Shown here one piece after another: positions 15,249 through 53,894 of a stretch of 64,000 bases of DNA; position 1 is the stretch's first letter, and each line of letters opens with the position of its first letter. The notes under the pieces were generated by a model. It saw only the letters and a list, made by a program, of their open reading frames with translations, searched no databases and was not told the origin of the DNA. The stretch lies in NCBI GenBank assembly GCA_903839465.1, contig CAIMCI010000366.1:15514-79513 (forward strand), read 5' to 3'. Made by a program: the position numbers and the translations under genes. The DNA is from an uncultured Pseudomonadota bacterium (lineage in GTDB: Bacteria > Pseudomonadota > Gammaproteobacteria > Steroidobacterales > Steroidobacteraceae).

Positions 15249-15258
15249 GCCCGGGATG

Positions 15259-15266
15259 ATGGCGCG
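15259..15266 (-). promoter_or_regulatory. CGCGCCAT box, 10 nt upstream of ATG 15248
   Basis: Coding strand reads CCCCGCGCCATCATCCCGGGCATG. Confidence 0.55.
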
Positions 15267-17544: not shown

Positions 17545-18053
17545 CGGCCGCTCCTTCCGGACAGCAATGCGAGTGGCTTGCCCGTGGCGTAGGCTTCGGA
17601 GATCTGCGGCTCGATCAACTCGCCTACCGTTCGCCCGTCGGGCAGCATCATGTCGGCGAGGAACTCCCGCTCGACCGACGAACCGCCTTCGGCAACGAGC
17701 TCGAGCTTAGCCTTGACCACCAAGAGCAAGCGCCGCCACACCTCGCGGGCCCCCTGCTCGACGCGGCCGGCAACCCACCTCTGGCGCTCAGACACCGCCC
17801 ATCCCTGCCACCCTTTGGGGGTGTCGGCGTTCGCCGGCTTGTACGGGTCCGGTAACTTCTCATGTTTGTTGGCGAGCTGCATTCGGTAGAACCGCTCGCC
17901 AAACCGAAACGTCACGCTCGCCGTCTCGGTCAGGTAGTCCGAAACAACTGCGGTCCCGGTTGCCCCGTGCCTGGTGAGCAGCGTCTCGATCTCGGCCTTG
18001 CTCTTGGCCACTTCGACCGTCGTGCCTTCGGCGAACCGCCTGGTCTTGTTCAT
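17541..18053 (-). CDS. Hypothetical protein, first gene of the leftward early operon
   Basis: 170-aa ORF. ATG 18053 lies 10 nt after a CGCGCCAT box that directly abuts a palindrome copy. Confidence 0.65.
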   Translation of the reverse strand: MNKTRRFAEGTTVEVAKSKAEIETLLTRHGATGTAVVSDYLTETASVTFRFGERFYRMQLANKHEKLPDPYKPANADTPKGWQGWAVSERQRWVAGRVEQGAREVWRRLLLVVKAKLELVAEGGSSVEREFLADMMLPDGRTVGELIEPQISEAYATGKPLALLSGRSGR

Positions 18054-19304: not shown

Positions 19305-19598
19305 GTGGACATGGCGACCACAGCACGACGACGAGCCCTTGACGACGATAGCCCAGTCCCGTTCGAGTCCCGCGAGCCCGTGAGCAAGCTCCGGAGCGTC
19401 CCACCCCCACCGCCCGAGCCGGAGGTGGACCCCATCACCGAGGCGAGGTTGAACCCGCTCGACATGCGAGCCGCGGTGAAGGCCAAGTGCTGGGACTGCG
19501 CCTCGCCGTGCAACAGCGCCGAGGCAATGGAGTCGATCGGCAACTGCGGAGTGGGCAGCTGTCCGCTTCATCCGCACCGCCCGTTCCAGCGGCTCTAG
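19305..19598 (+). CDS. Small Cys-rich phage protein
   Basis: 97 aa. The C-terminal KCWDCASPC...IGNCGVGSCPLHPHRP resembles a small Cys-rich family I recall from prophages. Function unknown. Confidence 0.55.
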   Translation: MDMATTARRRALDDDSPVPFESREPVSKLRSVPPPPPEPEVDPITEARLNPLDMRAAVKAKCWDCASPCNSAEAMESIGNCGVGSCPLHPHRPFQRL

Positions 19599-20413
19599 CC
19601 GAAGAGTGCCGGGTCGGCCTTCAGCGGCCAGCTCAGCATGTCCTCGAGATCCCGCTCGAGGATGTCGGCATCCCGTTCCCTGATCATGGCGGCTTGCAGG
19701 TCCTCATCGGCCATGGCCGCAACCGCCATCACGTTGCCGGCCTCGTAGTCGTTCAGCACCGGCAGGGAGTTCCAGTCGACCTGGTCAGCGGCGGCCTTCA
19801 CTCGGGGCATGCAGCCGACCAGCAGCGCCGAGTACTTGGCCTCCATCGCCGTGTAGTAGCCGCCGAGCTTGAGCGCATGCGCATAGGCAGCCGGACTGCC
19901 CGACCAGAGCGCCTCGAACGCGGCAGGGAACCTCCGCTCGAGCAGGCTCACGTGGTCGGTGACGCCGGCGAGCAGGTCTGAGAACGCGCGGAAGCAGCAC
20001 CCCGAGTGCTTGGGACTGATGCGCACGCTGGCCATGGCCCGGCCGTTCATCGTGTACTGGCCAACGACCTGCACGAGCGGGCTGCCGGCGCAGAGCTGCT
20101 CGGCGTAGGCGAGGGTGAGCTCCTCGCCACAGGTGAAGAACGTCCAGTCGTAGGCGCCTCCGGACACCGCCTTGGCGTTGCCCACGTTGTAGTCGTGGCA
20201 CTTCTCGCCCCAAGCCACCTCACCTGCCCACTGCGCAGTCATCAGCTCGACGGCCGAGCGCGGCGGTGCCGCCCCACGCAGGTGTAGCCATGCCCGGTAG
20301 AAGGCCGGGAGTATCTGCTCTAGGGCCACCGGGGTCAGCTGGTCGGGAAACTCGTGGGTGGCGGCCAGTGCAAGTGGGGTGTCCGGTGCGGTGGGGATGT
20401 TGTCGTTCGACAT
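19595..20413 (-). CDS. Putative endolysin, N-acetylglucosaminidase (FlgJ/LytD-like) type
   Basis: 272 aa. AQWAGEVAWGEKCHDYNVGNAKA ... CFRAFSDLLAGVTDHVSLL ... ALKLGGYYTAMEAKY follows the glucosaminidase-domain pattern (WG..N.GN.K, FRAF, GY.T...Y). Confidence 0.55.
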   Translation of the reverse strand: MSNDNIPTAPDTPLALAATHEFPDQLTPVALEQILPAFYRAWLHLRGAAPPRSAVELMTAQWAGEVAWGEKCHDYNVGNAKAVSGGAYDWTFFTCGEELTLAYAEQLCAGSPLVQVVGQYTMNGRAMASVRISPKHSGCCFRAFSDLLAGVTDHVSLLERRFPAAFEALWSGSPAAYAHALKLGGYYTAMEAKYSALLVGCMPRVKAAADQVDWNSLPVLNDYEAGNVMAVAAMADEDLQAAMIRERDADILERDLEDMLSWPLKADPALFG

Positions 20414-20472: not shown

Positions 20473-21252
20473 ATGCGATTCCACGTGATCACCTGCTGGC
20501 GCAAGAACCTCGGCGACACCTACCTGCTGCGCACCCTCGCGCAGCTGCGCCGTCAAGTGGCGGCGCTGAACGAAGAGGGGGTCGACAACCACTGCATCTA
20601 CGTGCGCGTCGATGGAGACTCGTCCGCGGTGAAGCGCATCCGGGATGACGTCGAGCAGCAGGTCAACCTCTGCCCTCTACCCGTCCACACGCAAGTGGTC
20701 CCGCTCGGCCAGTGCGGCGGCCACACGAGAGCCTGGAGAACGCTGCTCGACCAGGCGAGCCGCCACCTCGGCTCCGCCGTCTTCCTCGAGGATGACCTAC
20801 TGCTCGACTCACGTGCCGCACGGGAGATGGTCGCCCTGGTCCCGGGTTCGAGCTGCGGGTTTCTGACCTTCTACGACGGCAACCGACTACCCGAGAAACA
20901 CCCCGACGGTGTCGTCGTCCAGCCGATACGCGGAGAGAACGGGCACGGAGTTTGGGGCCTGATCGCCATCAAGATGCCGTGCGAGGTGGTGCGCTACTTG
21001 GTGGATGCCGACTGGGACAGTGACGATGTGAAGACCTTCCCAGGCTACCTGCTACACCTCGCGAACTGGGGCAACGCGCTCAACGCAGCCGACGTATTCA
21101 CTTCGTCGCTGCTGAGCCGTAGCCCGTGGCCGAACTACTCCATCCACGTGCCGAGCCTGGTGCAGCACGTGGGAGCTAGCAGCGAGTGCTTCGGGCCCGG
21201 CGTCGGTCTGCGTGGCAGGACCGCGCGTAACTGGCGACCCTCCGCGCCATGA
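20473..21252 (+). CDS. GT-A fold glycosyltransferase-like protein
   Basis: Starts at MRFHVITCWRKN. The N-terminal beta-strand/helix pattern is typical of GT-A enzymes, and the acidic VFLEDDLLLD sits at the DXD position. Confidence 0.55.
   Translation: MRFHVITCWRKNLGDTYLLRTLAQLRRQVAALNEEGVDNHCIYVRVDGDSSAVKRIRDDVEQQVNLCPLPVHTQVVPLGQCGGHTRAWRTLLDQASRHLGSAVFLEDDLLLDSRAAREMVALVPGSSCGFLTFYDGNRLPEKHPDGVVVQPIRGENGHGVWGLIAIKMPCEVVRYLVDADWDSDDVKTFPGYLLHLANWGNALNAADVFTSSLLSRSPWPNYSIHVPSLVQHVGASSECFGPGVGLRGRTARNWRPSAP
21243..21250 (+). promoter_or_regulatory. CGCGCCAT box, 9 nt upstream of ATG 21260
   Basis: Reads CCTCCGCGCCATGACTGGGGCATG. It overlaps the glycosyltransferase stop. Confidence 0.5.
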
Positions 21253-21259
21253 CTGGGGC

Positions 21260-21964
21260 ATGAGCTCCACATCGCGTCTCGTCGACGACCCAACCCACAA
21301 ACCCCTGGACCAGTACTGGACGCCGGATGCGTTGGCTAGCGCCAGCATCGCTCGGCTCCACATCCACCGCGGGATGGGTTGGTGGAGCAAGTGCTACGCG
21401 CTCGAGCCGCACTGCGGGCAAGGTGCGTGGTTGCGAGCAATGGACAAGTGCGTGACCGCAATCGACGTGTGCGACATTGACGCTCAGTGGACCGCCGTCG
21501 CACACAATTCAAGCAGCCACATTGGCCGGAAGATCCTGGGCGACTTTCTCACGGTCGACTTCGAGCCGACCAACGCAAAGGGAACTGGGTGGGGTGGTTA
21601 CGACCTCATCTGCGGCAACCCACCGTTCTCGCGCATCGCGCGGGACGCGCACGGCAAGCCGCTACTCACGAAGAAGGGCAAGGAGAAGTTCGAGACCGTG
21701 GCCCATCTGCACGTCGAACGGGCACTTCAGTTGCTGAACCCAAGCGGCTTGCTGGCGTTCGTTCTGCGTCTAGGGTTGCTCGGGTCGAACGATCGAGCCG
21801 CGTTCTGGGACCGCTACCCGCCGAGCTGCGTCTACGTGCTGCGCCCGCGGCCGTCATTCACGGGTGGGGGTAGTGACTCGGCCGACTACGGGTTGTTCGT
21901 CTGGGACAAACGCAAAGAAGCCCAGGGCAACGTGACCGCCCTGGGCTTCCTCGACTGGGCTTAG
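21260..21964 (+). CDS. N6-adenine DNA methyltransferase (NPPF type)
   Basis: DQYWTPDALA, motif I LEPHCGQGAW, motif IV LICGNPPFSR. Confidence 0.85.
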   Translation: MSSTSRLVDDPTHKPLDQYWTPDALASASIARLHIHRGMGWWSKCYALEPHCGQGAWLRAMDKCVTAIDVCDIDAQWTAVAHNSSSHIGRKILGDFLTVDFEPTNAKGTGWGGYDLICGNPPFSRIARDAHGKPLLTKKGKEKFETVAHLHVERALQLLNPSGLLAFVLRLGLLGSNDRAAFWDRYPPSCVYVLRPRPSFTGGGSDSADYGLFVWDKRKEAQGNVTALGFLDWA

Positions 21965-24280: not shown

Positions 24281-24721
24281 TCACTCCTCCTTCATCAGTC
24301 CTCGATCGAACAGCGAGACGTGCTTGTCATCGGTGACGATGACGTGGTCGAGCAGCTGGATGCCGAGCATCTTCCCGGCCTGCTGGACCTCGCGCGTCAT
24401 CTTGACGTCCGCGTAGCTCGGCTCCGGGTCGCCGCTCGGGTGGTTATGGGCGAGGGCGATCGCCGCCGCGCGATGCAGCAGGGCTCCTCGGAACACGTCC
24501 GCCGGGAGTATCGCTGCGCCGTGTAGCCCGCCCTGCGACACGACCTCGACGCCCGTCAGCTTGTTGCACCCGTCCAGGTAGAAGACCAGGACCTTCTCCC
24601 CGACCGAGTCGGAGAGAAACTCGCGCGCCACCACGGCCACGGACTGGTCGTTGCCGACGGTCCGCTGGTAGCGCACGGTGCCGCACCTGACCAGCTTGAC
24701 GCTGTAGACCGGTGTGAACAT
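24281..24721 (-). CDS. RadC-like JAB/JAMM domain protein (DUF2466 family)
   Basis: 146 aa from MFTPVYSVK. Signature ALAHNHPSGDPEPSYADVKMT. Confidence 0.8.
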   Translation of the reverse strand: MFTPVYSVKLVRCGTVRYQRTVGNDQSVAVVAREFLSDSVGEKVLVFYLDGCNKLTGVEVVSQGGLHGAAILPADVFRGALLHRAAAIALAHNHPSGDPEPSYADVKMTREVQQAGKMLGIQLLDHVIVTDDKHVSLFDRGLMKEE

Positions 24722-24846
24722 CAGCGTGCCTCCCCGAGCTCGGCCAAGAGCCTGCGTGCGTCGTCCCCACGTCGCCCGTCCCATCCCTTCATCCCTGCGG
24801 TCGCCATCGCGAGCGCCGCTTCCGGTGCCATCTTCTGCTTCGCCAT
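24721..24846 (-). CDS. Possible 41-aa leader protein of the RadC operon
   Basis: MAKQKMAPEAALAMATAGMKGWDGRRGDDARRLLAELGEAR, preceded by AGAAAGAAGGAAGAC. Its TGA shares one nucleotide with the RadC ATG. Confidence 0.35.
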   Translation of the reverse strand: MAKQKMAPEAALAMATAGMKGWDGRRGDDARRLLAELGEAR

Positions 24847-25001: not shown

Positions 25002-25421
25002 ATGCGCACCCCCCGCCGCCCGGCCCCTAGCTCCAAACCCGAACCGGACCCTGACGGCCGGGGCCTAAAAAGGCTACCCACCGGAACTGTTCGGCCCCTA
25101 GAAAGCGTTTCTGGCCCCCTCCCCGGGGGGTTGCCTAGGCGGGCCCGCCAGCCCCGGTTCACGGGCGTTGGCTGGCCAGAGATCATCGCCGCCCTGGGTA
25201 TCGACGACGACGCCCGGCTAGCGGCCATGGGCCGGTACCGCACCGCCGGCTGGACCCCGGAAGACTTCGCCGGTCAATGGGGCGCCCGCCGGGCCATGGC
25301 CGAGTCACTCACCTACGCCGAAGATCAAATCGAGAAGAAAGTCGACTGCCCGCGGCTGCGTGCTGCCCGCTCCGCTCTACGTGACGTGAGACGACGGCTC
25401 GAGCTCGAGCTCTGGCCCTAG
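25002..25421 (+). CDS. Hypothetical protein (N-terminal third may be non-coding)
   Basis: 139-aa ORF. The first ~50 codons are P/R/G-rich and CTAG-rich with hairpins. The C-terminal part (GWPEIIAALGIDDDARLAAMGRY...) looks coding. Confidence 0.4.
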   Translation: MRTPRRPAPSSKPEPDPDGRGLKRLPTGTVRPLESVSGPLPGGLPRRARQPRFTGVGWPEIIAALGIDDDARLAAMGRYRTAGWTPEDFAGQWGARRAMAESLTYAEDQIEKKVDCPRLRAARSALRDVRRRLELELWP

Positions 25422-26002
25422 CTGCGCACGCTGTGCAAGACCAGGTTGCTCGCCCAGCCGAGCAGCTTCACGGACGAGACGCACGCGTTCGGCATGCCGG
25501 CCTTCACCGCCAACCGCTCGAGCCCGGCCGTCCCTAATAGCCGCAGATTCTCATCCCTCGAGTAGAACTCGTGCCCGAGCCTCCGCGCACACGCGCTCCA
25601 TGCCTTCTGCGGCAGCCAGTGTAGGAGCGGCAGCCCCGTGTGAAACTCCACCGGCGCCCACCGGTTCGGCGTCGTCACGTAGAGCACTCGCCGGCAAACC
25701 CGCCAGAGCTCGCCGAGGAACCGCCACTGCGCACGCTTGCCGCCCACGTGCTCGAGCACCGCGCTCGAGTGCACCACGTCGAAGGCGCGGTCCTCGAACG
25801 GGAGCCGCGAGTCGGTGATCTGCACGTACCGCAGGGAGCTGAAGAGCTGAGGATGGAACGGGCTCTCCGCCATCAGCCCAGCCGCCGTGACGCGGTGCGG
25901 GTAGCGGTACGACCATTCCAAGTAGTTCGCATCCGGGCTGTCCTGGTCCGTCACCCCGACGTCGAGCAGCTCGTCCCGCTCGGTCGGGTTGCAGCGCTTC
26001 AA
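25418..26002 (-). CDS. Class-I SAM-dependent methyltransferase-like protein, possibly truncated
   Basis: FDVVHSSAVLEHVGGKRAQWRFLGELWRVCRRVLYVTTPN matches the Methyltransf_11-like core. Motif I is degenerate (LLDVGVTDQ). TTG start. Confidence 0.45.
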   Translation of the reverse strand: MKRCNPTERDELLDVGVTDQDSPDANYLEWSYRYPHRVTAAGLMAESPFHPQLFSSLRYVQITDSRLPFEDRAFDVVHSSAVLEHVGGKRAQWRFLGELWRVCRRVLYVTTPNRWAPVEFHTGLPLLHWLPQKAWSACARRLGHEFYSRDENLRLLGTAGLERLAVKAGMPNACVSSVKLLGWASNLVLHSVRS

Positions 26003-26652: not shown

Positions 26653-27081
26653 CTAGCGAGAATCCTTGGAGATGCTGTGCGAGGAGGCCCGCAGCCTGCC
26701 TACCTCAGCTTCCACCTTGGATGCGATGATTGGCCTCAAGTCGCTCACGCCGAACTCCGCCTGCGCTATCACTCGCCACTTGGCCGGAATGTTGGCAAAC
26801 GCCTTCTCCACCGCGCCGTTGCGCACCCGGTCTGCTTCCTCGGAGCTGAGCTTTCCGTCAGCCGACGTGTCTTTCAGCGAGCCCACTACGGTCTGCTCGA
26901 TCTCGGCTACGGCATCACTTACCACGTCGTTGATGATCTGGAGCACCGCCGCTATTCGTGATCCGTTCGCGCTGGTGACTACCGCGGCCTGGAGCCGCTT
27001 GATACCTGCCAAGAGAAGCGACAGGATGATGACGGCGGCAATTGAGACGAGCAGCTGCTTCCAGTCGGTGGGGATCGTCAT
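26653..27081 (-). CDS. Holin-like protein (single N-terminal TM, LL-H-like architecture)
   Basis: 142 aa with N-terminal LLVSIAAVIILSLLLAGI followed by a soluble helical domain. The call rests on architecture only. Confidence 0.4.
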   Translation of the reverse strand: MTIPTDWKQLLVSIAAVIILSLLLAGIKRLQAAVVTSANGSRIAAVLQIINDVVSDAVAEIEQTVVGSLKDTSADGKLSSEEADRVRNGAVEKAFANIPAKWRVIAQAEFGVSDLRPIIASKVEAEVGRLRASSHSISKDSR

Positions 27082-28743: not shown

Positions 28744-30258
28744 CTATGGGGCGAAGACCACTCGGAATCCTACGCCACCCGCCACTATGCGAGCGACCTC
28801 GTTCTCGATAAGCTTGTACAAGTCTTCGTCGAGAATGGTCGCTCCGTCTGCGCAGCACTTCCCCGCCGCGCACGGGCCGCTCAGCATCACGTCACGGGTG
28901 TCCGACGCAGCGCCGAACGAGCCGATCACCACCTTCGGCACCTGGACGAAGAAGAACGCGCGGTGATCCAGGAGGTCGAACGAGACTCGCCAGCACGCGT
29001 CCGAGCTCGGGTCGTCCGAGCAGTAGTGCTGCCCCGAACTGTTCGGCACGTCGGCATAGCAACCCGGGAACACAGCTGAGCCAGCCTGCCGGTAGACGCA
29101 GGTCAGCCCGTAGGGCTCAAGAATCTTGTTCACCCGGCGGCGCACCGCGTTGGGGCACACCGTGTCGGCCACCTCGGCCACCCGGTATCGGTAGGAGTCG
29201 TCCTCCTCACCGGAAGAGCGGAATACCTGCCGTTCGGCCCCGATCTCGTCAAGCGTCGCCGAACGGCCTCCGGTGGGGCTCAATGCGTTGGTCGCGACTA
29301 GCCCGAGATCGCCATCGAACGTGAGCAGCCGCCACGCCGTTGCCGAGTCGTCCGAAAGCAGCGGGTCGCGCATGACCGCGGTCACCGTCATCGCGACACC
29401 CGCGATAGTTGCCGCGCCGGCCGTGAACGAGCCGACCACTTCGTCCACCAGGAGGACGACCTGCATCGTCGTCGCATCAGGCCCGGTTGACGCACCGATC
29501 ACCCGCGCGTTGTTCGTCCCCTGCTCGAGCAAGTCACCCGCCGCGACTACCGTCCCGGCTGCCACCTGCCCGATGAGCAGGCACTCCCGGTCGAGCATCA
29601 CCACCCGACTCGACATTGCCATGACGATGCGACGCACCTCGCCCTGGTTCGTGCCGCTCATCAGTTCCACGTACATGCCGGCATGCAGGGGCGAGACGGC
29701 CTCGGCTCCCTCGGCAAACGTGAACAAGTTCTGCCCACTCACTACCGAGCACGTCGCACCCGTGCCGGATACCCGCGAGAGAGGCTGCTCGATCAGGGTG
29801 ATGGTTCCAGCCGCCGGCTCGTCGTATGCGTCACCCGGGTTCTCTGCCTGCGCGAGCACCGATTGGCCTGTGCCGTCGCCTGGCATCATGACGAGCCGCT
29901 CGGCCACCAGGTAGCGGCGCCAGCCGGCGTCCTCCACCGGACCCGAGTCCGTCTGGTCGTGCCTGACCACCAGGCCCGGGTCGATGACCAGTGCGAGGTC
30001 GAACCGCTTGTTGCGGCTCAGCGTCAAGGTCACCTCGGATCGCGCTGCGCCCGAGGCCGGGTCCCCTGCCTGCCCCGACCAGGGCAGCACGTAGCAGGCC
30101 TCGAAGTTCCGCTCCGTGGCCGAGGCCACCCGTGCGAACTGCGCTGCCGCCTGCTCGACCGTGGCCAACCCCTCCTCTCGCTTGAGCAGATTGGTGGCGT
30201 AGTCGTCATCGACGACGCTGCGCCACACTACCTGGAGCTTGGTTGCGTCGAGCACCAT
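28744..30258 (-). CDS. Baseplate/tail protein at the Mu gp48 / P2 gpI position
   Basis: 504 aa from MVLDATKLQV. The ATG shares one nucleotide with the stop of the J-like gene. The call rests on synteny. Confidence 0.5.
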   Translation of the reverse strand: MVLDATKLQVVWRSVVDDDYATNLLKREEGLATVEQAAAQFARVASATERNFEACYVLPWSGQAGDPASGAARSEVTLTLSRNKRFDLALVIDPGLVVRHDQTDSGPVEDAGWRRYLVAERLVMMPGDGTGQSVLAQAENPGDAYDEPAAGTITLIEQPLSRVSGTGATCSVVSGQNLFTFAEGAEAVSPLHAGMYVELMSGTNQGEVRRIVMAMSSRVVMLDRECLLIGQVAAGTVVAAGDLLEQGTNNARVIGASTGPDATTMQVVLLVDEVVGSFTAGAATIAGVAMTVTAVMRDPLLSDDSATAWRLLTFDGDLGLVATNALSPTGGRSATLDEIGAERQVFRSSGEEDDSYRYRVAEVADTVCPNAVRRRVNKILEPYGLTCVYRQAGSAVFPGCYADVPNSSGQHYCSDDPSSDACWRVSFDLLDHRAFFFVQVPKVVIGSFGAASDTRDVMLSGPCAAGKCCADGATILDEDLYKLIENEVARIVAGGVGFRVVFAP

Positions 30259-31373
30259 CAGTAGGTCAACCCCACGTTCTCGGCCCGAATCCGGAACGTG
30301 TGCCCGGGCTCCGGGTAGAGGTCGCCTGCGGGAGCGACAATCGTGTCGTCGGTGGCAATCAGTCCGACTGACTTGTAGCGGGTCAGCACGGCCATCAGCT
30401 CGCCGTGGAGCATTGGCATGTCGACGCCGAGGCTGTTGACGAACCCGACCATCGCGCCACGTATCTGCTCGGCGATACCCCGGGTGTCGACGTTGCCCTT
30501 GAACGCGAGCCGCAGCACCAGGCTCGGGATCTCCGGCTGCCCGGTGATAACCGCCACGTAGATGCCCGCGGCCGCCCACTCGTCGAGCTGCACACGCACC
30601 AGGTCGATCAGCGCGGAGTTCGACACGCCGGACGAGTCAGCGATGTAGTCGACCACGGCTCGAGCCGGGTAGCCCTCCACCGTGGTTGACGTGAACGCGT
30701 GCGCGCTGTCCACCCCGGGTACCAGCTTGGATGCGTACTCGATTGCAGGCAGGACGCCCCGCCGCGCGCTCTCCCAGAAGTGCTCCATCCGAGCCTTGAA
30801 CTGGTCGTTCGTCTCGCGCGGCTCGCCCCCCGCCGCGGGGTCCGGATTGTCCACCGTGATGGTCGTGTCGAACAGGCCGCTCCGGTCGCTGAAGCCGTTG
30901 ATGGCGTGCCGCCCAACCTGGAACTCCTTGCCCGCCTGCGTCGCCTTGGCGTTGCAGCTGGCCAGCAAGTCACCGGACCCGAACACTGCTGGAGTCGTCG
31001 CGTAGTAATCGACGCCCGTTGCCGTGCTGAACTTCCTGCCGATGGCGATAGTGCCGGCACCGGCGTCCGAGTTCGGGCGAGTGAGCACCACCGCCGCCAC
31101 TGCCGCCGAAGCTCCCTTGCGCAGTTCCCGGTACCGGTCGAAGTAGAGCCGGTCGAGCTTCTCGTCGTCATCGCAGCTGTCGCCGAACAGGTTGGTGAGC
31201 CCCTCGACGTGGGCACGCAGTACCGCGTGCGCCATGTAGCTGGTCGACCCGACGAACAGGTTGGCATCGCTGCCCGCCACGTCAACGATGGTCGGCTCGA
31301 TGCGCCGGGCCCGGCCGATGAAGACTCGGCGGCCCGACTCGTAAAGGTCCAGGCGAGAGGGAAGGTCAGGCAC
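30258..31373 (-). CDS. Baseplate J-like protein (Mu gp47 / P2 gpJ position)
   Basis: 371 aa. Size and position fit (after a gp25-like gene, before the gpI-position gene), with general resemblance to Baseplate_J proteins. Confidence 0.65.
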   Translation of the reverse strand: MPDLPSRLDLYESGRRVFIGRARRIEPTIVDVAGSDANLFVGSTSYMAHAVLRAHVEGLTNLFGDSCDDDEKLDRLYFDRYRELRKGASAAVAAVVLTRPNSDAGAGTIAIGRKFSTATGVDYYATTPAVFGSGDLLASCNAKATQAGKEFQVGRHAINGFSDRSGLFDTTITVDNPDPAAGGEPRETNDQFKARMEHFWESARRGVLPAIEYASKLVPGVDSAHAFTSTTVEGYPARAVVDYIADSSGVSNSALIDLVRVQLDEWAAAGIYVAVITGQPEIPSLVLRLAFKGNVDTRGIAEQIRGAMVGFVNSLGVDMPMLHGELMAVLTRYKSVGLIATDDTIVAPAGDLYPEPGHTFRIRAENVGLTY

Positions 31374-33530: not shown

Positions 33531-33550
33531 ACGGAACCCCGGGGTTCCGT
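33531..33550. promoter_or_regulatory. 20-bp perfect palindrome (copy 5) at a divergent junction inside the baseplate module
   Basis: Lies 15 nt from ATG 33515 (minus gene) and 21 nt from ATG 33572 (plus gene). Confidence 0.55.
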
Positions 33551-33571: not shown

Positions 33572-34177
33572 ATGAGTAGCAACGACGAACCCACCTCGCT
33601 CGGCAAGGTGCTCGTGACGCGCGGCACCGATGCCGCGATCCTGGTGCGCTACCTGGACCGACACAGTCTGAAGTCCTTGTGGGTGCCGCGAGCCGTTGTC
33701 TGCGATGACGGCGGCATTGCCAAGGACTCGGTGCGCGGTGAGGAGGGGGAGCTGTTCGTGCCCCAGTGGTTCGCCGACAAGGACGAGGTCGAGGCGTGGA
33801 TGGCCAAGTCGACGCCCGAGCAAGATGCCTCTTGGGAGCTAGGCCGCCAGTCGAAGGAGAAGCTGCTCGAGCTCGAGGCTGCTGCGAAAGAAGCCACCGC
33901 GATCCCCATCGACCGACGAGGCTCGAAGATGCTCGTCAAGGACCGCAAGGTGGTCGGCTTCGTCTGCTCCCGCGAGAAGCCCGTGCCGTGCTCCGCCAAG
34001 TGCGGCCGCGACGCCGAGGTCGAGTGCGAATACCCACTTGGCGGCAAGAAAGCCGGGGAGCTCTGCGGCCGAAAGCTCTGCCGACGCTGCGCCGTGAAGC
34101 TCGGCGGCAAGGTGCGCTGCCCGCCGCACGTCGAGCTAGCCCGCGAGCAGCCCGGCGCAGCCGAGCCCCGGCGCTGA
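33572..34177 (+). CDS. Opposite-strand moron: hypothetical protein with Cys-rich C-terminal domain
   Basis: 201 aa. It is the only plus-strand gene between 26 and 64 kb. The C-terminal region has ten Cys (CSREKPVPCSAKCGRDAEVECEYP...CGRKLCRRCAVKLGGKVRCPPH). Its 3' end overlaps the spike gene by 42 nt. Confidence 0.6.
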   Translation: MSSNDEPTSLGKVLVTRGTDAAILVRYLDRHSLKSLWVPRAVVCDDGGIAKDSVRGEEGELFVPQWFADKDEVEAWMAKSTPEQDASWELGRQSKEKLLELEAAAKEATAIPIDRRGSKMLVKDRKVVGFVCSREKPVPCSAKCGRDAEVECEYPLGGKKAGELCGRKLCRRCAVKLGGKVRCPPHVELAREQPGAAEPRR

Positions 34178-35185
34178 CTGCGGCAGACCTGCCGGTGCAG
34201 CACTCTTCTGCGTCGCCGCTGCAAACGCCGCAACCAGCGCCGCTTGAGTGAGAGGGAACGTGCTCCACAGCGAACTTGTTCCGGCTGCCGTCACCAACGC
34301 GGCCATTGCCGGATCCATCGTCATCGCGGGCAACGCGGTTGGAGGGGTGCCCACTACGGCCGGTGCCATCAGCCCGACCATGCCCTGAAGCACCGTCACC
34401 AGGATGTTGAGCACTGCCTCGGTCGTCGCTACATGCTCCTGCGGTGCGTTGGTCGCCGTACCGATCGCCATCGGCCCGGGCACCGTGATGAGGTTCACCT
34501 CGTGTGTGGCCCTGCTGCCGCTGAGCTGCATGTAGGCGTCGCCCGCCTGGAGCAGGAACGTGTCCTCGCTGTGCAGGAGCTGGAGCACGTGCCGCGGTGG
34601 GCTGCCCGGGCCGCTCGGCCCTTGGTACATGAGCGCGTCGGCACTGAGCTGGAGCATCTCCCCGTCGGCACCGCGCAGCGACACGTTGCCCACGTCGTCG
34701 AGTCCGATCATCGCGTAGCTCAGCCCGACTACCGTGCGGATGTAGTACGGCCCCTGGTGCTCCTCGACCACCGGCGTGACGCGCCGCCGGAACGCGAATC
34801 CGTTCTTGGTCGAGTCCTGCCCGAGCACGTCCTTGGGGAACTTGTCCTTGCTGTTGTTCAGACGCGGACCGATCACCCCGCCGCCCCGCGGGTTGCCGCT
34901 CGGGATGAACACCAATACCTCATCCCCCTCGACTAGCGGGCTCCACTCCCCTTCGCCGTCTCCGGCAAACGCGCCGCCGACCCGACAGCGGATCGGGATC
35001 TGGCTCGGCATCAGCTCGACGTTGACCATCATCTGGCAGCCCTCGTCGTCGTACTCGACGGGCTGGTCGTCGCCGCGCATCACCAGGCCGTAGCTATTCC
35101 AGATGCGAGTGTCGCTTCCGGGCCGGGCTAGCGCCTGGGCAAACGATGCGAGGTCAAGTGGCGGGGTCGCGGTGTGCCTTCTCAC
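34136..35185 (-). CDS. Baseplate central spike (P2 gpV / Mu gp45-like)
   Basis: 349 aa. The OB-fold region GEWSPLVEGDEVLVFIPSGNPRGGGVIGPRLNN matches the gpV pattern, and the C-terminus is Ala-rich. Confidence 0.65.
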   Translation of the reverse strand: MRRHTATPPLDLASFAQALARPGSDTRIWNSYGLVMRGDDQPVEYDDEGCQMMVNVELMPSQIPIRCRVGGAFAGDGEGEWSPLVEGDEVLVFIPSGNPRGGGVIGPRLNNSKDKFPKDVLGQDSTKNGFAFRRRVTPVVEEHQGPYYIRTVVGLSYAMIGLDDVGNVSLRGADGEMLQLSADALMYQGPSGPGSPPRHVLQLLHSEDTFLLQAGDAYMQLSGSRATHEVNLITVPGPMAIGTATNAPQEHVATTEAVLNILVTVLQGMVGLMAPAVVGTPPTALPAMTMDPAMAALVTAAGTSSLWSTFPLTQAALVAAFAAATQKSAAPAGLPQSAPGLGCAGLLAG

Positions 35186-35213
35186 GTATCGATTCTCTCA
35201 TGACGGCAACGAT

Positions 35214-36056
35214 TCATTCAGGGTCCTGATCACGGAACGTCTGCACGATGTCGAACTTCACCGGGCTGGCCAATAGTTGGTCGACCTTCTCGTGCAATGC
35301 CTTCAGGTCTTGAGCGATCTGTTCTCCGTGTAGCTCGTCCTTCAGGTCGAGCTCGTAGTTGGCGTCGGCCTGGGCGCGGTCCTTGGCCGCCTGCCGGTTC
35401 TGCGACATCACGATGAGCGGCCCTTGCAGGTAAACCCAGATGCCGAGCACGATGTTCAGGAACTGGTACGGGTACGGGTCGAATGACTTGGCGAACAAGA
35501 ACCACGCCGTGATGATGACCGATGACCCAATGATGAACCGCCAGCTGCCATTGAACTCGGCAACGGAGTCGGCCAGGCGCTGACCGAACCCGCGCGTGCC
35601 CTCATGCTCGCGTACCGCGTTGCGCACCACTCGCTTGGTCAGGATCTCATCAGTGCTCCGCACCCGCTCCACCAGCGTATTCATCATCTCGAGTGCCACC
35701 CCGTAGTTGTGCGCGAGGAAGTTCGCCACCACGCCGCGTGAGAACATCAGCACAATCGTTCTCGTCGTCGCGGTCACATCGGCGGAGTGCGGCTTCTGGT
35801 CGATCAATCCGAGCTCTCCGAAGAAGTCCCCGCGGCCGAGCCGCTTGAGCTCCACCCGCTCATCCCCCTCGCCGAGAGTCACCGCGAGTTCGCCCTCCGC
35901 CACTACCGCAAGATCACCCCCCGTGTCGCCGGCCTTCGATACCACCTCACCCGGGGAGCAGAACTTCACCGTGGCCATCCGGTCGAGTAGGTCTAGGTCC
36001 TCGGCCCGCAAGCCCGAGAACAGGGGCACCCGCCGCAGCATCTCCACGTTGGTCAT
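35214..36056 (-). CDS. Cyclic-nucleotide-binding domain fused to a DUF1003-type two-helix membrane domain
   Basis: 280 aa. The CAP_ED signature runs LRRVPLFSGL ... GDFFGELGLIDQKPHSADV. The DUF1003 signature is GSWRFIIGSSVIITAWFLF..FDPYPYQFLNIVLGIWVYLQGPLIVMSQNRQAAKDR followed by a coiled coil. Confidence 0.85.
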   Translation of the reverse strand: MTNVEMLRRVPLFSGLRAEDLDLLDRMATVKFCSPGEVVSKAGDTGGDLAVVAEGELAVTLGEGDERVELKRLGRGDFFGELGLIDQKPHSADVTATTRTIVLMFSRGVVANFLAHNYGVALEMMNTLVERVRSTDEILTKRVVRNAVREHEGTRGFGQRLADSVAEFNGSWRFIIGSSVIITAWFLFAKSFDPYPYQFLNIVLGIWVYLQGPLIVMSQNRQAAKDRAQADANYELDLKDELHGEQIAQDLKALHEKVDQLLASPVKFDIVQTFRDQDPE

Positions 36057-36182
36057 GCCCCGGAGGATAGCCCCCAGGACGCGCCGAACCCCCCGGGTGG
36101 GCTAGGGTGGCGGCCCTACCCCAGAAACCATTCCTGGGGCGGCTGGCGCGGAACGGGCAGCCAAATTAGGCCCGGCCACGGT

Positions 36183-37955
36183 TCAGTAGTCCTGCACGTT
36201 TACCTGGAGGGGGGGCCCGGCTGCATCAGCCCCGACCACGTCCGCCGGGGTCAGCTGATCCTCCGGGGACACGTCCTTGTCGGCCTGGAGCTCCAGGTAG
36301 TTGATGAACGTGCACTTCACGCTCGCCCCCTCGTCTTTCTCCCACGTGGTGGAGCTGGTCTTGGTGCGGAACGTGGTCTGCATCGCGATGCCGCTCATCA
36401 CCTTGGCGTAGGCCGAGGCGAGCTCCTGGCTGTAGCCGAGCTGGACGAGGAACTGCTCCGGGTCGTTTGCCGTGTGGGCGACAATGTCGGTAGCCGTCAC
36501 GTGCGGATCTCCGTCCTGCTCCCGCATGATGACGACGTCCATCGCGTCGCCCGGCTCAAGGTCGAGCAGGTCCGGGTCGCTGTTGTCGCCCCCGTAGCTC
36601 GCCAGCACCGTGGTCTCGAGCGAGACGGAGTTCTCCCCACGGAACTGCATCTCGTAGATGGCCTGAGCGAAGAGCTTCATCGTCTTCTTGTCGAACACCC
36701 CCTCGATCTCGTGTACGTGCCATGCCTGCTCGTTGGCGTTGCCCGGGTGAGGCCTGGTGAGCCGATCGTTCTTCTCGGGGAACCGCGCAACCACCAGGCT
36801 CTTGTGCCGCACGTCGTAACTTCTGACTTCCACGTTTCCCGGCGCGACGTCGGAGTTGTACTGCCGTCCCCACTCCATCGACTTGATGTTCTTGCCGTAG
36901 ATCATCAAGCGGCGCGTGAGCACCTTGCCAGTCGGCAGCTGTCGCCCTCGCGCAAAGGGATCCTCGGGCCTGCCGCTGAACCGCCCGTCGTACAGAGTGC
37001 GCGGCCTCTGGATCACCACCGAAGTCCCGTCCACCCGGATGATGTGCCCGATGGCCCCGCACACGTCGGTGAGGTAGTCCCACACCTTGAGCTTGCTCGA
37101 GTCGCCGCCGGCTCCGCCGGTGGGGGGCCCGAGCTTCGGTTGGAAGGAGGTCTTGGCTAGCACCTCCTTCAGCTTCGGCACCTTGTCGCGTGCCACGTGC
37201 GGGCGGTACTCCACGCTCATGCCGCGGAACTGCGGGAACTTCGCCAAGTAAGCAGCCACCGCTTCGTCGATAGGCTTGGTCGCGTCGACCGTCAGCTTGG
37301 GCGGCGCGTCCTGGTTCAGGAACAACCGGGTGTTGTCCGTGCACTCGAACGTCGTGACCGGGCCGTCCGCGTTGCTCCAGCTACCCTTCCAGTCGTCTAC
37401 CCATCCGAGAAACCGCGCGTTGCTTCGAGTTCTACCTGCCGAGTCGATGAACGTGTCCGGGACGACGTTACGCGGTATGCCCCCGGACGGGGTCGCGTCG
37501 GGCCGCACCTCACCCGCGATGCCGCGCCGGTAGTCCTCCGCATCGACGCAACCGAAGAAGTAGATCATCGCTATCGAGCGGAACGCCCGCGGGTCGAACG
37601 GGAAGTCCGCCTGGCAGACCGTCACGGTGAGCGTGTCGGCCGTGCGGGCTCCGTTGCGTTGGTGCGTGGCGTTGAGCGGGATCACCTTGTCGATGACGAA
37701 CGTGCGGTTGTCGCTCGAGTGGGTCTGCTCCTGCGGCCCCCCGGTTCTACCCGGGTCGTCGCCGGGTCCGACCAGAACCTGTGCCCCATCGACCATCACC
37801 ACCTTTAGGTCGTCGGCGCCGCGCTTGTCCTTCTTGCGCAAGTGCGGTGGAATCTTCGGCGGAGGCGGCAGGTCCTTCGCCCCGAAGTCCTCGAGCCGCA
37901 CGATGAACCTGACCCGCGCGCTCGGGTAGTACTGCTGGACCGGGTACTCGCGCAC
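36183..37955 (-). CDS. Baseplate hub protein (Mu gp44 / P2 gpD position)
   Basis: 590 aa. Position lies between a gp43-like gene and the spike gene; GTG start 1 nt after the upstream stop. Confidence 0.55.
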   Translation of the reverse strand: MREYPVQQYYPSARVRFIVRLEDFGAKDLPPPPKIPPHLRKKDKRGADDLKVVMVDGAQVLVGPGDDPGRTGGPQEQTHSSDNRTFVIDKVIPLNATHQRNGARTADTLTVTVCQADFPFDPRAFRSIAMIYFFGCVDAEDYRRGIAGEVRPDATPSGGIPRNVVPDTFIDSAGRTRSNARFLGWVDDWKGSWSNADGPVTTFECTDNTRLFLNQDAPPKLTVDATKPIDEAVAAYLAKFPQFRGMSVEYRPHVARDKVPKLKEVLAKTSFQPKLGPPTGGAGGDSSKLKVWDYLTDVCGAIGHIIRVDGTSVVIQRPRTLYDGRFSGRPEDPFARGRQLPTGKVLTRRLMIYGKNIKSMEWGRQYNSDVAPGNVEVRSYDVRHKSLVVARFPEKNDRLTRPHPGNANEQAWHVHEIEGVFDKKTMKLFAQAIYEMQFRGENSVSLETTVLASYGGDNSDPDLLDLEPGDAMDVVIMREQDGDPHVTATDIVAHTANDPEQFLVQLGYSQELASAYAKVMSGIAMQTTFRTKTSSTTWEKDEGASVKCTFINYLELQADKDVSPEDQLTPADVVGADAAGPPLQVNVQDY

Positions 37956-39959: not shown

Positions 39960-41969
39960 CTACGTGCCGAACGGCGTGGCCGAATGGGCCTGGAGACGGC
40001 GCGTCGCCAGCTTGCCCATGTCCTGCTTGAACGTGATGATCATCCGGTCGGGGTCCTGGTCGCGGAAGTCCTGCTTGATGTTGAACGTCTGCCCGCCGCT
40101 CATGTTCACGTTGACGTGCGGACGGGCACCCCCCGCGGCTCCCTTGGCGAGCCCAAGCAGCCGCTCGGCGAACTCCTTGCTCTTGCCCTCGACGATGCCC
40201 GCGAGCTGCTCATAGGCGTCGGCGCTCATCTTCCCGCTCTTGATGAAGGCGTCTTGCATGGCTGCCGACCCGACCAGCATGTTGGCGATGTAGTTCATCG
40301 CCCCCGCATTGTGGTTGGACGCGGCTTGCTCGAATGCGCCGCCTACGTCCGTCATCGCAGCCGCCACGTAGGCCAGCGTTCCGGCACCAGCCTTGTCACC
40401 CGCGTTCGCCATCTCGCGCGACGCGACGGTCGCCGCGTCCATCGTCGCTACCACCTTCTGACTGGCGTCGAACTGCTTCCAGTACTCCTTGGTCAGCGCC
40501 GCCGCCGACTCACGCGTCATGCCCACCTGCTCGCTGTGCGTGATGAACTCGTTCGTCATAAAGGCAAGCTGGTGCTCCACCTCCTCACTCGCCTTGGAGA
40601 ACATCCCGCCCTCGGAGATGAACTTGTCGATCGCAGTCTTGCGCGCCACCTCGTCGGCGTTCTGATAGTGCGTCAGTTCGTTGTAGAGCTGCACCGCCTG
40701 CCAGCCTGCTGCCGCAAGCCCGCCGACCGCTAGAGTGAGCGCACCGGCAGCACCCGCTGCTCCGGCCATTGCCGGAATAACTGCACTCCACTTGGACAGC
40801 CCGAATGCCGCGGGCATCACTGCCCCGGCTCCCGCCAATACACCCTTCGCCGCTCCTCCCAGACCGGCACCCACCATCGGCGCGTACTGGCCGATCGCCT
40901 TGGCGCCCTTCAGCGCCGCAGGGCCACCGTAGTAGAGCGCGGTCGCCGCTGCGATGGCCTGCCGGTGCTCGAGCACGAACCCCACCGCGCTCTTGATGTG
41001 TCCGGCCCCAGCCTTGAACCCCTCCTCGATCTCCGCCTTGTGGTCGATGACGTACCGGATGCCCTCCTTCATCCACTGCTGCGCTTCCTTCATGCCGCTG
41101 GCCACGTCACGCGCAGCGAGCACTCCGAACTCGCGCAGCGCCGGCATCATCTCTTCGAGCCCACCCTTGAAATCCTTGAGGAACGGGGTTAGTGCTCGAG
41201 CGATGGGTGTGCCGATCTCCTTCTTCGCAATCTCGATCAGGTTGTGGATGCTCGCGAGGTAGCCGCCCATGCCCATCTGCTGAGCACCGAGCTTCTGAGA
41301 CAGCGTGCCCATCGCCGTATTGAGTCGCTTGACGCGCTCCTCCTCGGTGAGCTTTGCCCAGTTGGCGGCAGCGCCCTTCACCTTGTCCCCGAAGATGCCC
41401 GTTGTCATCAGAAGCTGAAACATGCGACCGCGCGTGCGCAAAAGCCCCTCGGTCATCATCGACACCTCGACCGAGGTGGTCTCCATGTTCAAACCTAGGG
41501 TCCGGCTGATGGTCGCGAGATTCTCGGTCGTCGCCACGGTGCGGCGCATCCCCTCCTCGGTCGCTCCGTTGATCTCGAGCATCCGCTCGAACCCCGGCAC
41601 GATCTGCTCGATCGCCACGCCAGACTTCACACCGATGCGCTCGATACTCTCCTCGAGCCCGACGGCTCCTTCCCGGGCTCGGTCGAACCCGACTCCTTGC
41701 ACGGCCGCGATGAGCCCGGTCATCCCGGTCTGGAACTGCATGCTCTCGCGCGCCGCATGCACGAACCCCTCGGCCGTGTGCCACACGTGCTGAGCCATCG
41801 GCACGATGACCGAACCAATCGCCATCGCCCCGGCCGTCTTGATGAACCCCATCGACGCCTGGACGTGCTGCTGCGCCTGGTGGGTCTGGTCAAACCCCTT
41901 ACGGATCTTGCCCAGAGTGCCCGACGTTTCGTCATCGAGAACAAGTCTGCCGCGGACGTCGACGGTCAT
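39960..41969 (-). CDS. Tail tape measure protein
   Basis: 669 aa, helical and Ala/Gly/Met-rich, with a glycine-zipper hydrophobic stretch (AGAAGAAGALTLAVGGLAAAGW). It follows the G/GT chaperone pair. Confidence 0.8.
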   Translation of the reverse strand: MTVDVRGRLVLDDETSGTLGKIRKGFDQTHQAQQHVQASMGFIKTAGAMAIGSVIVPMAQHVWHTAEGFVHAARESMQFQTGMTGLIAAVQGVGFDRAREGAVGLEESIERIGVKSGVAIEQIVPGFERMLEINGATEEGMRRTVATTENLATISRTLGLNMETTSVEVSMMTEGLLRTRGRMFQLLMTTGIFGDKVKGAAANWAKLTEEERVKRLNTAMGTLSQKLGAQQMGMGGYLASIHNLIEIAKKEIGTPIARALTPFLKDFKGGLEEMMPALREFGVLAARDVASGMKEAQQWMKEGIRYVIDHKAEIEEGFKAGAGHIKSAVGFVLEHRQAIAAATALYYGGPAALKGAKAIGQYAPMVGAGLGGAAKGVLAGAGAVMPAAFGLSKWSAVIPAMAGAAGAAGALTLAVGGLAAAGWQAVQLYNELTHYQNADEVARKTAIDKFISEGGMFSKASEEVEHQLAFMTNEFITHSEQVGMTRESAAALTKEYWKQFDASQKVVATMDAATVASREMANAGDKAGAGTLAYVAAAMTDVGGAFEQAASNHNAGAMNYIANMLVGSAAMQDAFIKSGKMSADAYEQLAGIVEGKSKEFAERLLGLAKGAAGGARPHVNVNMSGGQTFNIKQDFRDQDPDRMIITFKQDMGKLATRRLQAHSATPFGT

Positions 41970-52913: not shown

Positions 52914-53894
52914 CTAGCGCATCTTGAAGCCGCTCGTGTTCCAGGGGGGCTTCGGCGGGGGGCCGCCCTTGCGCCCCTCCTGACGCCAGCGCTGCGCCAC
53001 GTCAGCCTGGCTCTTCGGCTTCAGGTACGCGGACACCGGCCACTCGACATCCCAGAGCACCACCACCTCGCGGTCGTTTGGGCGATTCGGCGGCGCGAGG
53101 TATTCACCTTCCCACCAGGTGAAAGGCTGGTCCACGCGTCGTACTTGTCCATGCACGGCATAGCTGTCGGAGCCCGTCCTGTCGTCGAACGTGGCGCAGA
53201 GAATTCTCACCATCCCGCCGCCCACCTGCTCGCTGATCTCCTGGTGAGCCTGAAGCGTTGACCTCGCGTGGGCGGCCGCGGTTTCCGTACGAAGTATCCG
53301 CTCAGCCCAGTACGCCGGAGCCTCCTGCAAGAAGGGTGACTGCTGGATGAGCAGGTCGCGTGCCTCGTCCCACGGCATGCTCTGCAATAAGCGCTGCTGG
53401 AGCACGTCCTCGAACTGCCCAACCACGCGCCCCGCGTAGCGCTCCATCACGCCCGGCCTGCCCGGGTGCGCCGGGTCGGCCTGGATGCGGTGCAGCACGC
53501 TCGACTCGGTGCCGACAACGGACCGCTCGAGCACCGTTGCTGCATCCAGAGCGAGCGGCTTGCCCGTGATGCCCTGGAAGTTCTTCTCGGCAGCGCGGAA
53601 TGACTTCAGCGTGCCCTCACCCGCCACCGCGGCAGCCTGCTTGGCCGTGTCGACCACCACCCCCTTCATCTCGGGCAGGAGGGTGCGGAGGACGACGCGC
53701 ACCTGCCGAAGAGAGGCCTCGAGCTGCGCCCTGGTGAAACTCCCCGCCATGCCCGGCGACAATCGCTTGAGCCTTCGCTCGAGCCCGCGCTCGGCCTTCT
53801 CGAGCGAACGGCGGAGCGGGCCGCGGCCTGCCCTGTCGGCGTAGCGCATGGCGAGCGCGTGGTTGGTGCGCACGAGCTCGACCGGGTCGGCCAT
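52914..53894 (-). CDS. Head morphogenesis protein (Mu gpF / SPP1 gp7 family)
   Basis: 326 aa. ERILRTETAAAHARS and CATFDDRTGSDSYAVHGQV fit the Phage_Mu_F pattern. Position is directly after the portal gene. Confidence 0.75.
   Translation of the reverse strand: MADPVELVRTNHALAMRYADRAGRGPLRRSLEKAERGLERRLKRLSPGMAGSFTRAQLEASLRQVRVVLRTLLPEMKGVVVDTAKQAAAVAGEGTLKSFRAAEKNFQGITGKPLALDAATVLERSVVGTESSVLHRIQADPAHPGRPGVMERYAGRVVGQFEDVLQQRLLQSMPWDEARDLLIQQSPFLQEAPAYWAERILRTETAAAHARSTLQAHQEISEQVGGGMVRILCATFDDRTGSDSYAVHGQVRRVDQPFTWWEGEYLAPPNRPNDREVVVLWDVEWPVSAYLKPKSQADVAQRWRQEGRKGGPPPKPPWNTSGFKMR

Follow-up and report, generated by a model that had tools for sequence, protein, structure and literature searches.

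The stretch of DNA analysed here, called the window below, comprises 64,000 nucleotides (nt) of contig CAIMCI010000366.1 (assembly GCA_903839465.1, positions 15,514 to 79,513) from the genome of a lytic-looking phage. Between two genes of its tail module lies an accessory gene, the open reading frame (ORF) 35214-36056 on the minus strand. Its product of 280 amino acids (aa) combines a cyclic nucleoside monophosphate (cNMP) binding domain with a DUF1003 membrane module in one chain. We interpret this cNMP-DUF1003 protein as a host-derived sensor-membrane protein that was captured by the phage, is expressed independently of the tail genes, has been re-tuned to another ligand and alters a membrane process of the host, and we give this reading about an even chance of being correct. 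Since the binding pocket has been remodelled while the signature of the membrane module was kept, we propose the phage copy as a re-tuned host protein.

Architecture of the protein

The product is a genuine two-domain fusion. In Pfam, cNMP_binding (PF00027) matches residues 33-117 with 65.6 bits (E 4e-18, cut-off 27.5 bits), and DUF1003 (PF06210) matches residues 170-261 with 78.7 bits (E 4e-22, cut-off 27.4 bits). The C-terminal half alone reaches 80.8 bits for DUF1003, and no second family was found in it at E values up to 1. Both families are thus recovered by profile search beyond their curated cut-offs, in agreement with a preliminary description of the sequence, which had recognised a CAP-type cNMP-binding domain fused to a DUF1003 membrane module.

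An AlphaFold2 model of the whole protein, built with 120 homologues as input, has a mean predicted local distance difference test (pLDDT) score of 82.7. Residues 1-117 form an eight-stranded beta-roll (pLDDT about 90-97 over residues 1-120), which is followed, as is characteristic of cyclic-nucleotide-binding (CNB) domains, by a long C-helix (118-153) and then a short helix. Foldseek matches of the full-length model in the PDB are exclusively CNB domains, among them those of PKG, CRP/GlxR, MloK1 and SthK, with E values of about 1e-12. Hydropathy indicates two hydrophobic helices at residues 174-192 and 199-217, of which the second is unbroken as far as residue 263 in the model. This two-helix transmembrane (TM) hairpin, together with the [ST]QNR..KDR signature past its second helix, is the hallmark of DUF1003 proteins, and QGPLIVMSQNRQAAKDR sits in invariant columns of the family alignment.

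Insertion into the tail module

The identical protein is encoded by an intact ORF on nine metagenome contigs, the longest of 88,189 bp. An orthologue with 60% identity occupies the same location in two JGI contigs, L004 and L005, in which the proteins flanking the insertion are 70-91% identical to those of the window. In the three further relatives examined (L011, L012 and L013) the copy of the upstream 590-aa protein is 46-52% identical, and a spike gene of about 340 aa comes directly after it, either overlapping or separated by a 29-nt gap. Both the cNMP-DUF1003 gene and a reverse-strand gene of 201 aa are missing at this hub-spike junction of L011-L013.

Because the gene is found in L004 and L005 while the junction is empty in L011-L013, it was acquired by the ancestor that the window phage shares with L004, and it stands outside the conserved tail module. 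Absence from the same junction in related phages is characteristic of morons. A structural tail protein, by contrast, would be conserved wherever the tail module is, and the relatives without the gene keep every flanking tail gene. No PHROG match was obtained for the 280-aa protein. The comparison supports the earlier view that the gene interrupts the tail order as a moron and is not a tail part. It resembles the classical morons of lambda/HK97-type phages in being a one-lineage insertion in a late structural operon with a putative expression signal of its own. It differs from them in having no terminator after it, in a leaderless-type putative promoter that is shared with replication genes, and in its virulent-looking carrier.

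Binding pocket

The phage cassette FGELGLIDQKPHSA for phosphate binding aligns gap-free with the bacterial consensus FGELALFDDKPRSA. Gly80, Glu81, Ser91 and Ala92 are kept, but the Arg of the usual Gly-Glu ... Arg-[Ser/Thr]-Ala pattern is replaced by His90 in both phage copies, the window copy and P0002, which read KPHSA. The same position holds Arg in all 118 aligned bacterial homologues and His in none of them. Distant family representatives likewise have Arg in nearly all cases, with P0344 and P0384 as rare non-Arg exceptions. The preliminary description had aligned this residue by eye with Arg82 of CRP, and its reading as His is confirmed by the codon (CAC) as well as by the alignments.

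In CRP, PKA, MloK1 and HCN the cassette Arg touches the cyclic phosphate, and its replacement cuts affinity by orders of magnitude. The substitution suggests that the ligand has changed in the phage copies. Of the earlier proposal of a sensor of host cyclic AMP or cyclic GMP (cAMP/cGMP) physiology, the sensor survives, but its ligand would be altered. The Foldseek matches also include the regulatory subunits of trypanosomal PKA (6h4g, 6hyi), whose PDB titles describe them as cAMP-independent and, in one entry, as holding inosine. These subunits, which we take to be without the cassette Arg, have the same beta-roll as the phage protein, but they are soluble kinase regulators, and His for Arg is a different substitution.

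The altered pocket bears on the idea that the protein is a membrane-tethered decoy or sponge for cyclic nucleotides of host defence or signalling. Sponges for nucleotide signals are an established phage strategy, and the CNB fold of the phage protein is under purifying selection (see below); the known anti-Pycsar tools are the Apyc1 nuclease and sponges of the Tad2 family, e.g. MoTad2, and not CNB domains (PMC12265669, PMC12393519). The Arg that clamps the phosphate is lost in both phage copies, and a membrane anchor is predicted, whereas Tad1, Tad2, Acb2 and Acb4 are small, soluble, tight binders. The sponges known so far form soluble oligomers of small size and have no relation to CNB domains. 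Moreover, the TM hairpin is the best conserved part of the protein, although a decoy could do without the signature of DUF1003. The role of a nucleotide decoy, as considered in the preliminary description, is weakened by the lost Arg and the membrane anchor, and we regard it as highly unlikely.

Selection and divergence

The two phage copies differ by 0.73 synonymous substitutions per site (dS), and the ratio of nonsynonymous to synonymous substitution (dN/dS) is 0.40 overall (bootstrap confidence interval (CI) 0.30-0.55). By region, the ratio is 0.35 in the CNB domain (residues 1-117; 95% CI 0.21-0.54), 0.43 in the TM hairpin (170-222; 0.18-0.89), 0.19 in the C-terminal helix (223-263; 0.09-0.50) and about 1.9 in the last 17 codons (0.32-36.8). 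Because the ratio of the CNB domain and its interval are this low, the sensor domain is still selected and not decaying.

These values are difficult to reconcile with a functionless passenger, i.e. a recently acquired and decaying fragment of host DNA. The gene does evolve faster than its neighbours (60% against 70-91% identity, and a dN/dS of 0.40 against 0.11-0.26), and no constraint is seen on the last 17 codons. However, the full-length ORF is intact in two lineages that are about 0.7 apart in dS, and dN/dS is below 1 both overall and in the CNB domain. The start-abutting box described below is conserved as well, and many shared derived residues have been maintained. We consider a mere passenger barely credible.

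The bacterial homologues, annotated as "DUF1003 domain-containing protein" or "CRP/FNR family ... cyclic AMP receptor protein", have the same architecture and length as the phage protein and 40-46% full-length identity to it. They share with the phage copies the motifs FGEL...P-x-SA, NGSW, FDPYPY and QGPLIVMSQNRQ..KDR. Mean identity is 69% among the bacterial homologues but 41-42% between phage and bacteria, and the phage pair forms a long branch. Besides the cassette His, the phage copies are distinguished by a shortened beta4-beta5 loop, a remodelled C-terminal helix and a phage-specific tail, while a shortened outer loop is confined to the window copy. Substitutions common to both phage copies are, among others, M49L, S69E, D72R, R90H, L105F, P118Y, N136D, A205G, D233N, N237D, N240D and I244G. 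Where conservation in bacteria is 95% or more, the window copy agrees with the bacterial residue in 22 of the 26 columns of the TM hairpin, 24 of the 38 of the CNB domain and 10 of the 20 of the C-terminal helix, so that the hairpin is the part best retained with respect to bacteria.

The tail PV[KR][FY][DN]IV...D.DP[ED] (residues 264-280, positions 35214-35264) is present in both phage copies and in no bacterial homologue. In L004 (4968-5075) it is about 20 residues longer and runs into the spike gene.

This pattern of retention and change could also arise in a dominant-negative or constitutive mimic, which would co-assemble with the cNMP-DUF1003 protein of the host through the hairpin or the long helix and hold the complex permanently active or inactive regardless of cAMP/cGMP. 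The parent family is abundant in the best-matching clades, the TM hairpin and its QNR signature are retained while the pocket has changed, and the C-terminal helix has identical charge changes in both copies (D233N, N237D, N240D, I244G). The changes in this helix could, however, equally block hetero-assembly. A mimic would be a sub-case of the captured, re-tuned sensor and not fully separate from it, and in this particular form we judge it rather unlikely.

Expression signals

The ATG of the gene is abutted by GCTATCCTCCGGGGC and has no Shine-Dalgarno (SD) sequence. A -10-like TATCCT stands at 36064-36069 (-13 to -8), 7 nt ahead of the ATG. Six matches to GCYATCMTCCSGGGYATG are present in the window, where 0.07 would be expected, and every one of them is on the minus strand and ends in ATG. 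The five other occurrences lie at start codons in the replication region at 2-15 kb. Next to the ATG, a run of 16 nt (TATCCTCCGGGGCATG) is unchanged in L004, though most of the spacer upstream of the gene has diverged. Both results bear out the "degenerate early-type box" of the preliminary description.

In its 18-nt form the box reads GCCATCATCC[C/G]GGG[C/T]ATG, of which the copy at the cNMP-DUF1003 gene is a degenerate version.

In the replication region the box seems to constitute a class of start signals or of promoters for leaderless mRNAs, and at the cNMP-DUF1003 gene it is probably such a promoter. Since the box is common to five replication-region genes, the inserted gene is probably expressed independently of the tail genes. 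The motif suggests co-regulation with the replication region and not with the SD-led genes of the tail. No intrinsic terminator was found for the inserted gene.

A broader use of such starts is suggested by the distribution of signals across 59 genes. A hexamer of the form xAnnnT is found at -13 to -7 in 14 of them (background 5.5%; p = 3e-6). All 14 lack an SD sequence, 20 other genes have one, and the two signals are mutually exclusive. We interpret this as a sign of heavy use of leaderless transcripts in the phage. Promoters for leaderless mRNAs of this signature are established in Actinobacteria and Deinococcus, and leaderless-type signals may provide a clue to the host clade.

Overall, about a quarter of the 59 genes have the -10-like hexamer and about a third a GGAG-type SD. 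Examples are the genes at 17541-18053, 19595-20413, 26653-27081, 39960-41969, 52914-53894, 53904-56288 and 58131-61913.

The spacer of 126 nt that had been noted ahead of the gene agrees with the coordinates obtained here (Table 1). A 13-nt block in it, GGGCCGCCACCCT (36104-36116), is conserved in L004 and is not repeated in the window beyond chance. The hairpins that the preliminary description saw in this spacer did not hold, as the stability of its fold is within chance (z = -1.5; 18 of 200 shuffles were equally stable). A riboswitch or attenuator was likewise considered and rejected, given this fold and the chance-level hits of Rfam on 34900-36400.

A cellular parent family and its viral relatives

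A protein search gave 1323 hits with the same cNMP_binding and DUF1003 architecture, the representative library holds 62 proteins at E <= 1e-30, and in the genome collection at least 547 bacterial species carry the family. The best identities, 45-46%, are to metagenome-assembled genomes of Myxococcota type. Further carriers belong to Lysobacterales, cyanobacteria, Chthoniobacterales and Acidobacteriota. On two large bacterial contigs the family gene is surrounded by housekeeping genes, and no cyclase is present next to it among the annotated neighbours. Clustering of neighbours at 80 loci revealed no conserved partner: the commonest real neighbour family occurs at 14 of the 80, an antisense ORF artefact overlapping the gene having been set aside. 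The parent family is cellular, a stand-alone gene in ordinary chromosomal contexts.

Neither GenBank phage records nor IMG/VR contigs contain the fusion, and only proteins with DUF1003 alone were found there. Stand-alone DUF1003 genes of 112-250 aa are present on 33 IMG/VR viral contigs (L094-L126) and in GenBank phages (H1-H4). They have the same membrane module with the QNR signature as the phage protein, but lack the CNB domain. Judged by these sequences, phage or prophage regions carry DUF1003 repeatedly, although some of the genes may be host genes at prophage edges.

The contigs with a stand-alone DUF1003 gene include a group of about 112 kb (L114, L120 and L123). In L120, the one contig checked in this respect, the gene is not in the tail module.

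The viral DUF1003 genes are relevant for the possibility of a lysis-timing device, in which a holin-like two-helix protein would form holes or depolarise the membrane when its sensor opens the gate. Two TM helices, a topology predicted as N-in/C-in and a charged C-terminal helix give the modelled protein some resemblance to class II holins, and DUF1003 recurs on the 33 viral contigs. In L120 (113 kb) the DUF1003 gene (7974-8315) is followed, after about 1.4 kb, by two peptidoglycan-hydrolase-type genes (9707-10901) downstream. This arrangement is a weak hint of a link to lysis and has no counterpart in the window, and even there two genes of no known role stand between the DUF1003 gene and the hydrolases. 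Class II holins are proteins of less than about 150 aa with two TM helices, encoded next to an endolysin. The phage protein, with 280 aa, is far above this size, and the sole lysin-like gene of the window (19595-20413, a weak Glucosaminidase hit) is about 15 kb away, which leaves the earlier suggestion of a lysis gate without positional support. Furthermore, L011-L013 lyse without the gene, and DUF1003 is common as a bacterial chromosomal gene. A role in lysis timing appears quite unlikely to us.

The carrier phage

Among the products of the window are a family-B DNA polymerase, a primase and two helicases, one DnaB-type and one DEAD/ResIII. Also present are a sigma-70 region-2 protein (6267-6905), RadC (24281-24784) and several methyltransferases. 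RecA-, Mre11- and Rad50-like proteins are encoded in the flanks of this phage, together with ParB_N, Mom, a radical-SAM protein and Prok-JAB. The window and its flanks of about 20 kb cover about 83 of the 88 kb of the phage, about 5 kb being unseen, and in the part covered neither an integrase nor a transposase or repressor was detected. A search for tRNA genes was negative. The element is a lytic-looking myovirus-type phage of about 88 kb, and its likeness to Mu is limited to the gene order of the tail module.

A reading of the element as a prophage was rejected on account of the full replisome and the lack of integrase and transposase genes in the part covered.

The DNA-modification genes form an unusually rich set, with MT-A70, an Eco57I-type methylase and Methyltransf_11 in the window (9660-10811, 21212-21964, 25418-26002). 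The Mom-like and radical-SAM genes of the left flank (L008, 8541-9161 and 10468-11997) belong to the same set.

Because the phage encodes a replisome of its own and an integrase was not detected, readings that require a lysogen are weakened, among them the superinfection immunity from a prophage that the preliminary description had envisaged. This applies to a Pycsar-type suicide effector, which would permeabilise the membrane upon binding the ligand of a host or co-resident cyclase and would thereby make a lysogen immune against other phages. The membrane effector of Pycsar, PycTM, reportedly goes back to Tal et al. (2021). Three weak PADLOC matches (E 5e-6 to 6e-4), to PycC, Effector (TIR) and PycTIR, were obtained through the CNB domain. 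None of the three is a membrane-effector (PycTM) model, and the matches are confined to the shared CNB fold, which argues that the cNMP-DUF1003 family is not Pycsar. The likeness to PycTM that had been noted before holds for the architecture, since PycTM likewise has a cyclic-nucleotide-binding domain and TM helices in one polypeptide (PMC11224242), and a membrane activity under ligand control would in principle be conceivable for both, but it does not extend further. The TM module of the phage protein is DUF1003 with a signature of its own, the pocket Arg is replaced, and the gene is borne by a lytic-looking phage that may have no lysogen to protect. A Pycsar effector stands beside PycC, whereas neither the scanned proteins of the window nor the precomputed Pfam hits of the flanks include a nucleotide cyclase domain, in line with the earlier remark that no cyclase is adjacent. 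The bacterial parents, too, stand alone in housekeeping contexts with no conserved neighbour at the 80 loci. We consider a Pycsar-type effector very improbable.

Proposed role and its significance

If the gene is a captured and re-tuned sensor, a copy of the widespread bacterial cNMP-binding/DUF1003 gene would have been acquired by a phage ancestral to the two related, lytic-looking ones of about 88 kb, and would have inserted itself between the gene at the hub position and the spike gene. There it would be read from its own start-abutting box, probably a leaderless-mRNA promoter, in common with five replication-region genes. The two-helix hairpin of the product would reside in the inner membrane, with the sensor domain and the long C-terminal helix in the cytoplasm. 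The membrane module has kept the family signature, while the sensor pocket has been remodelled (Arg to His) and then maintained by purifying selection. The phage copy might respond to a different ligand, in a different range of affinity or pH, or to no canonical cAMP/cGMP signal at all. It could in this way drive or block a membrane process run by the DUF1003 protein of the host, such as ion or envelope-stress homeostasis, to the benefit of the phage. Of these steps, the data establish the fusion, the insertion, the conservation under selection, the replacement of Arg by His, the shared box and the cellular origin of the family, whereas promoter function, membrane topology, the change of ligand and the effect on the host are inferred.

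However, we also have to consider several points that speak against this interpretation. The neighbour-joining tree is uninformative about the donor clade because of the long phage branch. DUF1003 has no assigned function; the two papers found to mention it report indirect stress or adaptation phenotypes in streptococci, and the "membrane process" accordingly lacks a definition. The DUF1003 module, modelled separately as residues 135-280 (pLDDT 83.6), has no structural relative in the PDB (best Foldseek E 5.6), nor does phmmer match it to any PDB sequence. The dN/dS of the inserted gene exceeds that of its neighbours, which points to relaxed constraint. Promoter activity, its timing and leaderless translation are deduced from motifs, and a consensus sigma-70 promoter was not found in a scan of the spacer region. 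With 28 nt to the start of the spike gene and no terminator, transcripts may continue, and the box could also drive the downstream baseplate genes. Finally, His can still hydrogen-bond a phosphate, which leaves room for binding of cAMP or cGMP.

A more specific possibility is that the bacterial cNMP-DUF1003 proteins mediate an unrecognised membrane response gated by a second messenger, for instance a pathway of stress or of abortive-infection type that monitors the general cAMP/cGMP pool, and that the phage copy was re-tuned as a counter-measure or take-over. It might then serve as a dominant-negative subunit, or it might sense another nucleotide that is made during infection. We regard this extension as decidedly unlikely; if it held, the phage protein would be the first viral CNB-domain membrane protein in phage-host nucleotide signalling and would provide the first function for DUF1003.

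DUF1003 is a large uncharacterised membrane family, and its fusion to a cNMP-binding domain occurs in hundreds of bacterial species. A phage copy that is under selection, with a signal of its own and an altered phosphate-clamping residue, constitutes a natural experiment, which singles out the ligand pocket and the membrane hairpin as the parts that matter for function and suggests that the pathway is of importance during infection. Its role, once worked out, could define a new class of virus-encoded second-messenger hardware alongside the known nucleases and sponges. The immediate value lies in a lead for the biochemistry of the cNMP-DUF1003 family and in a well-documented accessory gene of an uncultured phage.

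Features of the region and neighbouring genes

Table 1. Position of the inserted gene, its parts, its putative signals and its neighbours in the window
Feature	Position	Strand	Basis or remark
Accessory gene, 280-aa cNMP_binding + DUF1003 membrane protein	35214..36056	-	ORF, Pfam
CAP-type beta-roll CNB domain, residues 1-117	35706..36056	-	PF00027, Foldseek, dN/dS
Phosphate-binding cassette FGELGLIDQKPHSADVT, residues 79-95; His90 = codon 35787-35789 (CAC)	35772..35822	-	sequence, alignments
DUF1003 module, residues 170-261: TM1, short outer loop FDPYPY, TM2, long predicted-cytoplasmic helix	35274..35549	-	PF06210, hydropathy, AlphaFold2
Family signature QGPLIVMSQNRQ, residues 211-222, cytoplasmic end of TM2	35391..35426	-	invariant or near-invariant columns; retained in both phage copies
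Start-abutting "early-type" box GCTATCCTCCGGGGCATG, 18 nt	36054..36071	-	putative promoter for leaderless mRNA
Other five boxes, at start codons in the 2-15 kb replication region	2246-2263, 4789-4806, 8569-8586, 12490-12507, 15246-15263	-	pattern search
126-nt spacer between hub-position gene and inserted gene	36057..36182	-	alignment with L004
Upstream neighbour, 590-aa conserved tail-module protein at baseplate-hub position	36183..37955	-	280 homologues
Downstream neighbour, 349-aa putative central spike (gpV/gp45-type OB domain)	34136..35185	-	sub-threshold Phage_base_V
Second lineage-specific insertion, 201-aa ORFan with Cys-rich C-terminal half	33572..34177	+	window phage and L004/L005 only

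The spike gene starts 28 nt past the end of the inserted gene, and four of five spike orthologues have a sub-threshold match to Phage_base_V (E 4e-4 to 5e-3) at the same N-terminal place. For the 590-aa protein, many of whose homologues come from contigs of 80-100 kb, neither Pfam, PHROG nor PDB-sequence profiles gave a match, a Pfam scan of 34 homologues yielded nothing useful, and an IMG/VR search returned no match. The label "hub" is inferred purely from position because of this lack of matches. Of the gp44- and gp45-position labels in the preliminary description, that of the spike has sub-threshold backing from Phage_base_V, whereas that of the hub has no family or PDB match behind it. Across the neighbours, the sole PHROG match is a baseplate wedge/J-like protein at 30258-31373, and Pfam gives almost no matches on the structural genes.

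The 201-aa ORFan and the spike gene are convergent, with an overlap of 42 nt at the 3' end of the latter, and the ORFan has 76% identity to its sister copy; like the cNMP-DUF1003 gene, it is missing from L011-L013. Its own upstream element is a palindrome at 33533-33548, unlike the box of the cNMP-DUF1003 gene.

This perfect 16-bp palindrome, GGAACCCCGGGGTTCC, occurs in six copies (at 15577, 18075, 20433, 24955, 33533 and 53926) against 0.02 expected. The copies are mostly intergenic or divergent, 17-30 nt upstream of leaderless-type starts. The palindrome may be an operator of a phage regulator or a bidirectional terminator, and it is a second regulatory class, distinct from the box at the cNMP-DUF1003 gene.

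Three homologues of the hub-position protein, P0200, P0205 and P0220, have a length of 851-862 aa. No Pfam hit was obtained for P0200, while P0205 and P0220 carry the intein-splicing domain PF14890 and appear to have an intein inserted within a baseplate gene.

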